Shown here: one piece after another, positions 1 to 11,670 of the stretch
Layout of the letters: every line of letters begins with the position of its first letter
How positions within the stretch are numbered: position 1 is the first letter of the stretch
Source of the DNA: an uncultured Alphaproteobacteria bacterium
GTDB taxonomy: Bacteria; Pseudomonadota; Alphaproteobacteria; Methylaequorales; Methylaequoraceae
Reading direction: 5' to 3'
NCBI GenBank assembly: GCA_902526175.1
Contig: CABZJY010000001.1
Coordinates: forward strand, 134,698-198,697
Length of the DNA: 64,000 bases
The notes under the pieces: model-generated
What the model was told of the DNA's origin: nothing
Seen by the model: the letters and a program-made list of their open reading frames with translations, nothing else
Database searches by the model: none
Made by a program: the position numbers and the translations under genes

Positions 1-698
1 ACAGACTTTATACAATCTGGTACTAGTCTTTTATCATCTAAATTTTGACCTGGACCAAATACATTAAATGGCCTGATTGTATTAACTGCAAGTTTGTACT
101 TTGTTTTATAGACATATGCAAGTGTCTCTGCAATTCTTTTTGATTCGTCATAACATGCTCTTGGACCTTCACAAGAAACATTTCCATTAAACTGTTCATT
201 GGTAGGTATGTTGTTATTGTCTGGGTCACCATAAACCTCACTGCTACTCATTATAACAACATTAGTAACTTTTTTTAAAACAGCCAGCTTCAAAACATTT
301 CTCGTTCCAGAAACATTTGCATCTAGCGTTTCGAGGGGATAAATTCTATAGATGGATGGTGAAGCTATACTTGCACCGTGAATTATGTAGTCCACATCAT
401 TAATATTAACACTTTTACTTACATCAGTATTGTAGAACTTTATTTCATTTTCATTGATTAAATGTTTTAATCTTGTTTTTTTGCTGGAAGAAAAATTATC
501 CATTGCGTGAACAAAGCATCTGTTGGAAGGTTCTAGGGATTTGTTCCATTGATTAATTACATCAACAAAATAGCTACACAAAAAACCATTTGCTCCTGTA
601 ATAAGTAGACTTTTATTTTTGAGATAATCTAATGAACTACCAACTCTCTTAATTATGTGAGAACAATCTTCTTCAATTATTTTGGAGTAATTTGACAT
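1..698 (-). CDS. NAD-dependent epimerase/dehydratase (UDP-glucuronate decarboxylase-like extended SDR), 3' end outside the window
   Basis: Translated by hand from ATG at 698: MSNYSKIIEEDC...LLITGANGFL (Rossmann motif), SSSEVYGDP, catalytic YDESKR (YxxxK), RPFNVFGPG. Not in the ORF track because it runs off the edge. Confidence 0.9.
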   Translation of the reverse strand, partial: MSNYSKIIEEDCSHIIKRVGSSLDYLKNKSLLITGANGFLCSYFVDVINQWNKSLEPSNRCFVHAMDNFSSSKKTRLKHLINENEIKFYNTDVSKSVNINDVDYIIHGASIASPSIYRIYPLETLDANVSGTRNVLKLAVLKKVTNVVIMSSSEVYGDPDNNNIPTNEQFNGNVSCEGPRACYDESKRIAETLAYVYKTKYKLAVNTIRPFNVFGPGQNLDDKRLVPDCIKS

Positions 699-1881: not shown

Positions 1882-2122
1882 AAAAGATCAATAAGTTAAA
1901 CATTCTTTATTTTTTTTTAAACCAAATATTAATTTAAATTAAAATTAGTAAGAAGATAAGCCAGAAAACTTTAATTATCATGATCGAACTACGAATTCAT
2001 TTCTTCTGCAAGAGTAGATTTAAAATATCAATAGTTTTATGATTTAGAAATTAAATTCTTAAAAACTTGCAAAATAATTTCAAATCTGGAATAAAAATAA
2101 CATCAACTAAGATAAAATCTTT

Positions 2123-2210
2123 GCGCTCGTGCTGAAATTGGTAAACAGACTGGACTTAAAATCCAGCGGAACATTGTTCCTTGTCGGTTCAAGTCCGACC
2201 GAGCGCACCA
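2123..2210 (+). tRNA. tRNA-Leu (anticodon TAA)
   Basis: Acceptor GCGCTCG/CGAGCGC-A-CCA, anticodon arm CTGGA-CTTAAAA-TCCAG, long variable arm GGAAC..GTTCC, T-loop GGTTCAAGTCC. Confidence 0.97.
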
Positions 2211-2233
2211 AATGAAAAGTAAATTCTATTTAT

Positions 2234-2260
2234 AAAAAAAAGGGGATTTTTAATCCCCTT
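2234..2260 (-). terminator. Rho-independent terminator oriented for the minus-strand small ORF (may also stop tRNA-Leu read-through)
   Basis: 9-bp stem AAGGGGATT/AATCCCCTT with a 3-nt loop. The U-tract lies on the minus strand (A-run 2234-2241 on +). Confidence 0.85.
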
Positions 2261-2290
2261 ATCGTATTAATTTCGGTCAATTTAACTTTT

Positions 2291-2368
2291 CTAATTAACT
2301 TTATTGTTGAGATTATCTGACAAATAGTTAATTAAGTTAAATTGAGTTTCATTTTTAATACTAGACAT
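2291..2368 (-). CDS. Putative 25-aa small peptide (MSSIKNETQFNLINYLSDNLNNKVN)
   Basis: ATG at 2368 is preceded by AAAGGAGGTGATCTG (GGAGG 7 nt from ATG). TAG at 2291-2293. Flanked by a promoter and a terminator. Confidence 0.65.
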   Translation of the reverse strand: MSSIKNETQFNLINYLSDNLNNKVN

Positions 2369-2370
2369 CA

Positions 2371-2433
2371 GATCACCTCCTTTAAATTAGTTAATAATTT
2401 TTATATAGTACAAATTTTTAAAAAGTAATTCAA
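2371..2433 (-). promoter_or_regulatory. Sigma70-type promoter plus extended Shine-Dalgarno for the 25-aa ORF
   Basis: -35 TTGAAT (2428-2433), 17-nt spacer, -10 TACTAT (2405-2410). SD AAAGGAGGTGATC (2371-2383). Confidence 0.7.
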
Positions 2434-2560
2434 ATGTAAATTTAATTGATTATATGTGTTATCAATCTTTAAACTGTAAAATCTTTTGTAAAGAAATTTT
2501 TATTTATTTTATTTATGAAAAAATTCCTACCTCTTATAATTTTTTGCGCAATTATATTTT

Positions 2561-3697
2561 ATGGATTTTATGAAAGTTATAAAAATAAAGTTGAAAAATA
2601 TCCAAAAATATTTAATACAGAAAATACCTTTGATTAATACTATTTTGATTTTTTTAAGAAAGTTCTCTTTTTATTTTTTTATTTATCTTTTTTCATATTG
2701 TTTTTTTATATTTCCCTATGAAGCATTATATTATCTATACTTTGGAAACATAATAGGAATTAATTCTTTTCTAATCAACTTTTGTATAACAACAATAGTT
2801 ATTTCTTATTTTCGATCAGTTATAAGGCTTTCTTTTTTAAGGTATTTAATACATTATGGAATTGGAATAGGTTTTATAGGATTTTTCATTTTAATCTTCG
2901 GGCTTTTAATCAATATAATCTTTACTGGAAACTCTGAGAAAATTGCTCTGATATGTCTAAATATTCATATTTTCTTAATTATTCTAAGTATAAAAAATGG
3001 AAATACAATTTATCTCAAAACATTAGATATTAGAACTGATAAAAAGATAAAAACTGATATAAATCTTATTTTTTTAAGTGATCTTCATTTAGGATCTAAT
3101 TCAAAAAATCATTTAAAAAAAATTATTAAAAAAATAAAACAAATTAAATATGATTTGCTTTTAATAGGTGGGGATATGATTGATTCAAGCAAATTTAATC
3201 TTGGTAATTTAAAATTATTTTTTGAAATCAGCAAACCCATAATATTTGTATCAGGAAATCATGAATACTATTTAAATAATTTTAAAGAAAAACTTTCTTC
3301 GCTAAAAGAATATAATATTAATTTTCTAAACAATATGTCTTTCAAATACAAAGAACTTAATATCATCGGTATTAGTGATGATATCAATCTTAATACAAAA
3401 GAAAATCTTACTACAAAATTATTAAAAAGGAATTTTTTTAATTTAGTTTTGGTACATAAGCCTTGTTTATGGGATTTTTTACCAAGCTCAATTGATTTAA
3501 TGCTATCTGGACACACTCATAATGGCCAAATTTTCCCATTTAATTTAATTGTTAAATTAAAGTATAAATACATCTTCGGTTTATACAAAAAATCAAATTC
3601 CAAACTATATGTTTCAAGTGGTTCTGGTTGTTGGGGACCAAGAATGAGGTTAGGATCTAGAAATGAAATAGTTTATATTAAATTAAGAAAAAAATAG
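2561..3697 (+). CDS. Membrane-anchored calcineurin-like metallophosphoesterase (YkuE/YaeI family)
   Basis: N-terminal TM helices; motifs SDLHLG, GGDMID, GNHE, GHTHNGQ, SSGSGCWGPRMR. The true start may be TTG 2630. Confidence 0.9.
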   Translation: MDFMKVIKIKLKNIQKYLIQKIPLINTILIFLRKFSFYFFIYLFSYCFFIFPYEALYYLYFGNIIGINSFLINFCITTIVISYFRSVIRLSFLRYLIHYGIGIGFIGFFILIFGLLINIIFTGNSEKIALICLNIHIFLIILSIKNGNTIYLKTLDIRTDKKIKTDINLIFLSDLHLGSNSKNHLKKIIKKIKQIKYDLLLIGGDMIDSSKFNLGNLKLFFEISKPIIFVSGNHEYYLNNFKEKLSSLKEYNINFLNNMSFKYKELNIIGISDDINLNTKENLTTKLLKRNFFNLVLVHKPCLWDFLPSSIDLMLSGHTHNGQIFPFNLIVKLKYKYIFGLYKKSNSKLYVSSGSGCWGPRMRLGSRNEIVYIKLRKK

Positions 3698-11304: not shown

Positions 11305-11647
11305 ACTAGATGGTTGTATGGCTGCCTTTTAAGGAGGAAAGTCCGGACTCCACAGAGTAACAGTGCCGGGTAACACCCGGCGAGGGTGACCTTAGGGAAA
11401 GTGCCACAGAAAATATACCGCCTTAGGGTAAGGTTGAAAAGGTAAGGTAAGAGCTTACCGCATTGATGGTAACATTAATGGCAGGGTAAACCCCATTGGG
11501 AGCAAGTCTAAGCAGGCAAAGTCTTTTGACAGCTTTACTCTGAGTTTTGCCAGGTAAGACGCACAGAAGTAATTGGTAACAATTATCTCAAGATGAATAG
11601 CCATAATACTTTTTAAGTAACAGAATCCGGCTTATAGACCATCTAGT
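11305..11647 (+). ncRNA. rnpB: RNase P RNA (type A)
   Basis: GAGGAAAGTCCGGACTCC, GAAAGTGCCACAGAAA, GGTAAACCCC, ACAGAATCCGGCTTA; P1 helix ACTAGATGGT/ACCATCTAGT followed by a T-run; usual position upstream of mraZ. Confidence 0.97.
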
Positions 11648-11670
11648 TTTTTTTATTTTTTTGTTGCTAT

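Follow-up and report, generated by a model that had tools for sequence, protein, structure and literature searches.

A putative AT-rich branch of the rre/CC2171 small mRNA family with an extended Shine-Dalgarno sequence in streamlined marine Alphaproteobacteria

Background

The rreB gene of Bradyrhizobiaceae specifies a small mRNA, mapped at 165 nucleotides (nt) in Bradyrhizobium (Hahn et al. RNA Biol 2017, PMC5711450, on parts of which all statements about rre in this text rest). The RNA carries a 17-nt perfect complement to the 3' end of 16S rRNA, extending to the first G of the GTG start codon, encodes an open reading frame (ORF) of 14 codons, and adjoins a tRNA gene. Its translation is weak, and it sediments together with 30S subunits. 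Changing its start codon to a stop codon stabilises the RNA, while overexpression leaves growth unaffected, and the authors argue against a plain ribosome sponge. Here we describe a likely relative of this RNA, a predicted transcription unit in a 64,000-nt stretch of DNA (the window) from an uncultured alphaproteobacterium of the order Methylaequorales (assembly GCA_902526175.1, contig CABZJY010000001.1, positions 134,698 to 198,697). The unit combines an unusually long Shine-Dalgarno (SD) sequence with an ORF of 25 codons.

Analogues of rre have been reported in four alphaproteobacterial orders, among them the 18-codon rreR of Rhodobacterales and an ATG form in Azospirillum. The encoded peptides are unrelated between clades, synthetic RreB and RreR are unstructured, and the genomic context is not conserved outside Bradyrhizobiaceae (PMC5711450). 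In the literature citing this paper, which concerns trpL, we found no later functional work on rre. A second described system is the Rfam family RF01867, named for the Caulobacter sRNA CC2171. This RNA was confirmed on a Northern blot in Methylorubrum, and according to the same preprint no condition is known to affect it (bioRxiv 10.1101/2022.01.24.477521). The passages of the preprint used here make no link between CC2171 and rre, and a term search of the Hahn et al. text returned no occurrence of 'CC2171' or 'Rfam'.

Results and Discussion

The predicted transcription unit

The unit is probably a divergent, AT-rich small mRNA of the rre/CC2171 family, predicted to form an independent transcript of about 165 nt that would capture 30S subunits. 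It spans positions 2433 to 2232 on the minus strand, where coordinates here and below are positions in the window. Its elements and the adjoining tRNA gene are as follows.

2405–2433, minus strand: promoter-like pair read from the sequence, TTGAAT (2433–2428) and TACTAT (2410–2405) with a 17-nt spacer
2390–2395, minus strand: leader box ATTAAC (the AAC box), conserved in alignments of the same order
2371–2383, minus strand: extended SD sequence AAAGGAGGTGATC, an exact complement of the organism's own 16S 3' tail
2291–2368, minus strand: 25-codon ORF with ATG at 2368–2366, TAG at 2293–2291 and TCT AGT as codons 2 and 3; product MSSIKNETQFNLINYLSDNLNNKVN
2264–2361, minus strand: long imperfect hairpin, from folding and covariation, that holds most of the ORF and starts right after ATGTCTA
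2309–2322, minus strand: internal site TGTCAGATAATCTC, complementary to the SD/start block by duplex prediction, in place of the apex motif GAGCARCCT of relatives
2234–2268, minus strand: conserved AATACG (2268–2263), then an intrinsic terminator with a stem-loop at 2260–2240 and a T run at 2239–2234, from sequence, terminator scan and alignment
2123–2210: tRNA-Leu(taa), convergent with the unit

An earlier reading of the window's sequence (the original prediction) had described these elements as a self-contained unit convergent with tRNA-Leu, and each element it named lies where it was placed on the minus strand. Two of its details need qualification. GGAGG does stand 7 nt (TGATCTG) from the ATG, but the 13-mer, described as directly preceding the start codon, is separated from it by TG. 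The promoter-like pair is present and its position is kept in relatives; however, its hexamers agree with the consensus at 8 of 12 positions, where the cut in our promoter scan was 9 of 12, and promoter-like sites around the locus are no commoner than in shuffled sequences. Taken alone, the window promoter is weak evidence. Transcription is predicted to begin near 2398–2397. Downstream of TACTAT, a leader of roughly 30 nt contains the ATTAAC box. The 30-nt tail 3' of the ORF ends in AATACGAT, and the terminator consists of a 9-base-pair hairpin, AAGGGGATT-AAA-AATCCCCTT, followed by the T run. Two terminator-like sites occur between 1500 and 3500, where 0.2 are expected.

An extended SD sequence in an SD-poor genome

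The source assembly comprises 1,330,477 bases in 31 contigs with a GC content of 29.3% and contains a single 16S gene. Since this gene ends in ...GGCTGGATCACCTCCTTTCT, the 13-mer is complementary at every position to the rRNA tail of the same organism, which bears out the full reverse complementarity claimed from the conserved 16S end. The UG immediately following the 13-mer could add two G-U pairs with 16S rRNA, and the duplex predicted between the leader and the last 20 nt of 16S rRNA has an energy of -25.1 kcal/mol. The 13-mer has a single exact match within the window and, the rRNA gene aside, is unique in the assembly. A count of anti-SD matches of at least 12 nt, which the original prediction had proposed, therefore yields this site alone outside the rRNA gene; the next-longest matches are of 11 nt, at two sites whose context looks coding-like by eye.

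We surveyed SD usage in 888 ORFs of at least 200 codons, taking the first ATG as the start and seeking a core match at positions -18 to -4. An upstream match of at least 4 nt was found for 11.8% of these ORFs compared with 7.8% at a control position inside genes, and one of at least 6 nt for 4.2% compared with 0.9%. Because few ORFs have an upstream core match and the longest is 7 nt, the genome is SD-poor, as had been supposed when most genes in the window were said to have a weak SD or none. By comparison, the other candidate SDs reach little more than half the length of the site in the unit. The genome nonetheless keeps the canonical CCUCC tail in its 16S rRNA.

Distribution and conservation

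Of 60 relatives searched at the DNA level, 25 genomes carry the unit, all from the same family. Across 42 genomes of the same order we used the pattern AAGGAGGTGRTCTGATGTCTAGT, allowing up to two mismatches, and found it without a mismatch in 28, representing 11 of 14 genera and including seven of the nine genomes that are at least 90% complete. The block AAGGAGGTG(A/G)TCTGATGTCTAGT has no mismatch in 28 of the 42, and 23 nt are invariant there. Other members of the order carry a 16S complement of 12–13 nt. A covariance model (R1), built from 21 order sequences in which the annotated helices were limited to the basal, apex and terminator ones, gave no match at E<=0.01 in five order genomes lacking the pattern, although this does not establish absence, as only 150 of about 2,600 first-look candidates per genome were scored.

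Beyond the order, a scan of one genome per GTDB species found the exact 21-nt core in 93 stretches of other alphaproteobacterial genomes. By title, the carriers include SAR116/Puniceispirillum, Rhodobiaceae, Filomicrobium, Methyloligellaceae, Hyphomicrobiales, Parvularculaceae, Candidatus Levibacter and unclassified marine Alphaproteobacteria, and their local GC content lies between 0.21 and 0.61. Nearly all fetched loci (80 of the 93) show the same series of elements, namely the AAC box, the SD/start block, TCT AGT, the ORF (mostly of 24–26 codons), a sequence ending in ACG, and a GC-rich terminator, the last of which a few lack by our search pattern. One locus, L070, has two inverted 21-mers 132 nt apart at the end of a 2,309-nt contig, which is probably an assembly artefact. 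Among 111 distinct family members, AAC lies at -16 to -4 of AAGGAGG in 93, and a TTGnnn-16..18-YAnnnT pair ending 15–32 nt before AAGGAGG is present in 56, where 4.5 are expected from shuffling. The distance from this pair to AAGGAGG has its mode at 22–23 nt and is 22 nt in the window copy.

The neighbouring genes vary between loci of the order (UPF0114, MORN_2, Fur and methyltransferases), and a conserved neighbour or target gene was rejected because flanking genes differ from locus to locus. Adjacency to a tRNA gene was likewise rejected as a family trait, with a tRNA within about 1.5 kb at three of 42 loci. At eight loci of the order (L038, L039, L053, L035, L042, L055, L057 and L034) a UPF0114, MORN_2-repeat or Fur-family gene is often nearby, in differing order and orientation, which suggests a rearranged syntenic block that is gone from the window's genome. 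We also compared positions 1900–3400 with marine metatranscriptome sequences, using assembled contigs only. Within 2234–2433 there was one match, a 206-nt contig that covers only the invariant block at 2358–2394 and most likely derives from a relative's copy.

Assignment to the RF01867 (CC2171) family

The sequence AAGGAGGTGATCNNRTG is present in 75 of 401 sampled genomes of the class (61 of 308 genera), nearly always once in each, while the reversed control gave no match. The loci fetched for it share a build of AAC box, extended SD, start codon, TCT, basal helix and terminator, with an ORF mostly of 20–28 codons. Six of 20 such loci (L165, L166, L178, L179, L181 and L182) exceed the 75-bit gathering score of RF01867 over their full length, with 76–101 bits. 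All six carry GAAAGGAGGTGATCCAG plus TG, a 17-nt complement that includes the G of GTG and is the hallmark of rre. The rre genes and RF01867 thus appear, from their sequences, to be one family under two names, left unconnected in the literature consulted here.

Further loci form a descending series of full-length RF01867 matches from 74.9 to 28.2 bits. Below the threshold, these include GC-rich carriers of the exact 21-mer: L122 at 36.6 bits (E 2.8e-4), L107 at 34.5, L100 at 29.9 and L082 at 28.2, with E values reaching 0.03. The model R1 matches these four loci as well as L169 and L174, which score 51.6 and 32.8 bits with RF01867. Homology of the window unit to RF01867 is therefore found through intermediates and not by a direct gathering score. 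An Rfam scan of the whole window reported RNase P RNA and two tRNAs only, with nothing at the locus, and other AT-rich forms gave no RF01867 match.

The architectures can also be compared. Like the window unit, the RF01867 consensus has an unpaired 5' region, cAAcaA..GAAAGGAGGUGAUC, a start codon followed by UCU, a basal helix straight after it, and a terminator. Its consensus line reads as unpaired cAAcaA..GAAAGGAGGUGAUCCAGUGUCU, then immediately the basal helix and, with inner hairpins between, the terminator. The window unit presents the same features, with its AAC box and extended SD at the 5' end, its basal helix after the start codon and UCU, and its terminator at the 3' end. The interior differs, since most members of the window branch form one long hairpin with a GAGCARCCU apex, whereas the RF01867 consensus contains several short hairpins. 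Overall, the unit would be a divergent branch of the rre/CC2171 family.

RNA structure and pairing

The window unit has a minimum free energy of -34.9 kcal/mol (z -3.66), and none of 200 shuffled sequences was as stable. Single-sequence folds were computed for 71 distinct units, and the architecture is taken from the folds listed. In the common fold among these, the SD/start block lies outside stable helices and a long imperfect hairpin extends from AUGUCUA to just before the terminator, with an apex formed by GAGCARCCU (a GAG/CUY stem and a CARC loop). The basal helix of the window copy pairs GUAUUAA (2361–2355) with UUAAUAC (2270–2264). The folds also show a weak local hairpin at 2366–2380 (minus strand), in which the invariant GGAGGU pairs with the invariant AUGUCU (G-U, G-C, A-U, G-U and U-A); this may explain the invariant second codon UCU.

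The model R1 matches 60 of 61 loci over their full length at E<=0.001, AT-rich and GC-rich forms alike. In the R1-guided alignment of 60 sequences, which is fitted to the model's structure and hence biased towards it, 95.3% of pair cells are standard pairs compared with 77.2% after shuffling, and 18 of 24 pairs have changed on both sides. The covariation score is 0.453, in contrast to 0.168 for shuffled alignments (none of 500 reaches 0.453) and 0.07–0.15 when partners are slid by one to three columns. Both-sided changes occur in four of the six pairs of the basal helix (95.5% of cells paired) and in eight of the nine pairs of the terminator helix (97.8%). The third pair of the basal helix, for example, is A-U in 35 sequences, G-C in 14 and U-A in five. 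With the 71 units aligned by MAFFT, RNAalifold found just one pairing, between the SD and the apex motif; the long hairpin was missed, and required the model-guided alignment, because its variable arms were misaligned.

Within the order, RNAalifold predicts an alternative to the hairpin that excludes it, consisting of 13 pairs in GGAGGU/ACCUUU and UCUGAUG/UAUCAGA. Its columns are invariant, which puts it beyond the reach of covariation. The window copy has lost the SEQPL sequence of its relatives' peptides, yet retains most of the alternative pairs by one-sided changes (GAGGU/AUCUC), with one pair broken as G:A. Between the SD block and the downstream 95 nt of the window copy, the best duplex is of -14.6 kcal/mol, compared with a shuffled mean of -7.6, and 1% of shuffles are as strong. 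The best such duplex falls at nt 36–59 in 95 of 104 members. In predicted folds of the nascent RNA, the SD is occluded at lengths of 95–110 nt and open at 130 nt and at full length. The predicted cost of opening the 13 nt is 3.08 kcal/mol in the window unit, and the median over the 71 units is 3.93.

The ORF and its peptide

The peptides fall into unrelated, clade-specific types (MSSIxDxxQLxxFxxFLSEQPLIKR, MSSIFYENCSRKVLNLSEQPLIKLSL, MSSDKRFGSKDLVSVWRAEEQPSGCA, MSSEFRLKARNQEVTTRLMSSLITSV, MSSSIGFGSATVAGGLKSSLVGRA and MSSENSLGLTHHGRMTWVLEQPLALK), with only MSS common to all. The MSS codons show no synonymous variation across the 28 order genomes. The only conserved element inside the ORF is GAGCARCCT, and its conservation is at the nucleotide level. 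Among 77 distinct sequences, it is read in frame 0 as E-Q-P in 54 and in frame 2 as (K/M/T)-S-S-L in 14, while nine, including the window copy, have no match. In one locus (L089) it lies beyond the stop codon. Because the motif is kept while the reading frame changes, it is conserved as RNA. Pairwise differences are flat over the codon positions in four of five clades. Nine representative peptides had no match in Pfam and NCBIfam at E<=1. A leader peptide with regulatory codons, a type I toxin and a precursor of a ribosomally synthesised and post-translationally modified peptide were considered and dropped, as there are neither codon runs nor a hydrophobic helix, and conservation is lacking for both partner genes and the peptide.

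The length of the ORF is nevertheless maintained. The first in-frame stop falls at codon 20–29 in 106 of the 111 distinct members, compared with 13.5% in composition-preserving shuffles, and at codon 23–26 in 97; in the other two frames, stops at codon 20–29 occur in 22 and four of the 111. These counts come from related and not independent sequences, although the same is seen in clades that have unrelated peptides and GC contents from about 25% to 60%, and the set includes two longer, signal-peptide-like ORFs that we judged unrelated. These two, L160 and L180 in genomes of the class, have the same extended SD before ORFs of 49 and 57 codons resembling signal peptides, and an over-long SD thus also occurs outside the rre build. 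As judged from these alignments, selection keeps the RNA features and the length of the ORF and not the peptide, which narrows the plausible functions towards a mechanism involving the RNA and the ribosome.

Proposed mechanism and alternative explanations

In the mechanism that we propose, the 5' tail, predicted to cost about 3 kcal/mol to open, would offer the over-long SD to the whole single-stranded 3' tail of 16S rRNA. The contact would comprise 13 Watson-Crick pairs and two possible G-U pairs, with the AUG at the usual spacing of 7 nt. The body would be one long conserved hairpin that holds the ORF of 24–26 codons and abuts the intrinsic terminator. By extension from the experiments on rreB, the RNA would be captured by 30S subunits through its extended SD and translated weakly, and its turnover would be coupled to initiation at the start codon, termed 'ribosome-regulated expression'. 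In addition, we infer that the internal site around codons 15–20 may mask the SD in the nascent transcript and that completion of the hairpin may free it, so that complete transcripts alone would engage ribosomes. A doubtful further step would make the RNA a gauge or buffer of free 30S subunits in streamlined marine Alphaproteobacteria in which SD-led initiation has almost disappeared, and the single transcript there that is shaped to capture the entire free 16S tail. The GAGCARCCU region (TGTCAGATAATCTC in the window) would act as an anti-SD mimic that hides the nascent SD until the hairpin is finished, and the length of the ORF would serve as a mechanical ruler, with a ribosome's fixed-length passage through the hairpin to codon 24–26 deciding between refolding and decay and the peptide being a by-product.

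The comparison of orthologous loci called for by the original prediction supports its view of a self-contained transcript of about 165 nt, since promoter position, SD and start codon, ORF length, tail and terminator are conserved together; the mapped rreB RNA is also 165 nt long. Of the functions then suggested, a main role as an RNA holding 30S subunits, and a lesser one for the peptide, is favoured by the motif read in two frames, by the flat codon positions in four of five clades, and by the association of the weakly translated rreB with 30S subunits. Data on rreB (PMC5711450) speak against other suggestions of the original prediction. Its weak translation runs against a very highly translated peptide, its overexpression without effect on growth opposes a plain ribosome sponge, and its stabilisation by the change from start to stop codon contradicts a self-stabilising RNA.

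An ordinary, efficiently translated small-protein gene, in which the peptide of 24–26 amino acids is the product and the RNA features serve expression or stability, is an unlikely explanation. It would account for the ORF stop kept at codon 20–29, for the order's peptide pattern MSSIxDxxQ(F/L)xx(F/L)xx(F/L)LSEQPL and for its third codon positions varying 1.5–1.7 times more than the first and second, and the ATG and shorter SD would lift two brakes on translation found in rreB (PMC5711450). It is hard to reconcile with peptides that are unrelated across clades except for MSS, with an internal motif read as EQP in 54 sequences and (K/M/T)SSL in 14, with flat codon-position differences in four of five clades and with MSS codons free of synonymous variation. 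The window copy itself lacks SEQPL while retaining the SD complementarity, no Pfam or NCBIfam family matches, and the synthetic RreB and RreR peptides are unstructured (PMC5711450).

Less probable still is a trans-acting small RNA (sRNA) that would recognise mRNA targets with a seed in its free 5' tail or its apex loop, and whose resemblance to a ribosome binding site is secondary. Rfam does class RF01867 as an sRNA gene, and the unit's free 5' tail, structured body and terminator hairpin fit the typical architecture of sRNAs; the CCU-rich GAGCARCCU apex could moreover pair with the SD sequences of mRNAs. However, an mRNA seed needs neither an invariant tail that exactly complements 16S rRNA, nor an optimal spacing to a start codon, nor an ORF of maintained length. 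Apart from the rRNA, the complement of the tail has no copy in the genome, and rreB was found on 30S subunits (PMC5711450). It is very improbable that the unit is a cis-acting leader or attenuator, with translation of the small ORF deciding whether transcription passes the terminator into a downstream gene. Ribosome-dependent attenuators do have a comparable layout, with a terminator behind a small ORF. By our tally, the next ORF is on the same strand at about 19 of 26 loci of the order with downstream sequence, mostly beginning about 150–190 nt past the start codon (500–900 nt in four), and a UPF0114 gene lies downstream in four genera. In the window, though, the next feature is the convergent tRNA-Leu, and seven of the 26 loci have a convergent ORF. 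The downstream genes differ (UPF0114, MORN_2, FkbM methyltransferase and Fur), no alternative anti-terminator appears in the predicted folds, and the context of rre is not conserved outside Bradyrhizobiaceae (PMC5711450).

Several observations weigh against reading the unit as an rre/CC2171 RNA that captures 30S subunits. Its membership rests on a chain of intermediates, because the window copy has no direct RF01867 match at E<=10 (positions 1900–2800 and the whole genome) or at E<=1 (locus L002). The unit was not found in 14 of the 42 order genomes, two of which are 93% and 99% complete. Besides the alignment bias of the covariation counts, the pairing between the SD and the internal site has no double compensatory changes, and the corresponding duplex reaches the 5% level in only 55 of 104 members, mostly AT-rich ones, while many GC-rich members do not differ from shuffles. 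In the window's own order there is a modest excess of third-position differences (0.368 compared with 0.241 and 0.220) and the peptides show hydrophobic periodicity, which leaves room for a functional peptide there. A ribosome-directed role is unproven even for rreB, whose overexpression has no growth phenotype, and Hahn et al. found that its longer complement and GTG start restrain translation (PMC5711450). With its ATG start and shorter complement, the window branch may be better translated than rreB.

Significance

The RNAs of the rre/CC2171 family are widespread in Alphaproteobacteria and were shown to sit on 30S subunits (PMC5711450). The loci described above connect the published rre genes with Rfam RF01867 and extend the family to abundant, genome-streamlined marine lineages, the window's order and genomes labelled SAR116, where it is invisible to the Rfam model and where, in the window's streamlined genome, almost no other gene has an SD. 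The unit is a new branch of a known family in these lineages, and not a new class.

Other features of the window

The neighbours of the unit are the tRNA-Leu gene and a metallophosphoesterase gene. The hairpin at 2240–2260 sits 30 nt past the 3' end of the tRNA-Leu (2210). On the plus strand the hairpin is followed by ATCGTATT and not by a run of T, and so it probably terminates transcription of the tRNA poorly. The other RNA genes are as follows.

11306–11650, plus strand: bacterial RNase P RNA class A, full length, 286 bits
42912–42988, minus strand: tRNA-Met (cat)

Comparison with known systems

In SD-poor Bacteroidetes, the mRNA of rpsU, which encodes bS21, reportedly underlies an SD-based autoregulation. 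Its likeness to the window unit is an analogy only, in that a rare, strong SD in an SD-poor lineage marks a transcript that would report the state of the anti-SD. The rpsU transcript is a ribosomal-protein mRNA with a known feedback loop, whereas the window unit lacks a protein product of known function.

The resemblance to rreB is closer. Both are stand-alone alphaproteobacterial RNAs of about 165 nt (a predicted length in the window) with their own promoter (a promoter-like pair in the window) and terminator and a structured body. In both, AGGAGG is lengthened on either side into a long complement of the 16S tail and stands 7 nt from the start codon of a very small ORF, and the peptide is specific to its clade. 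The window copy and rreB each adjoin a tRNA gene, although this is not general (three of 42 loci). The window unit departs from rre in having 13 Watson-Crick pairs and two possible G-U pairs instead of 16–17 pairs, an ATG start with the complement ending 2 nt before it instead of running into a GTG, and 25 codons instead of the 14 of RreB and 18 of RreR (PMC5711450). Unlike rreB, it resides in an SD-poor genome of 1.3 Mb with 29% GC.

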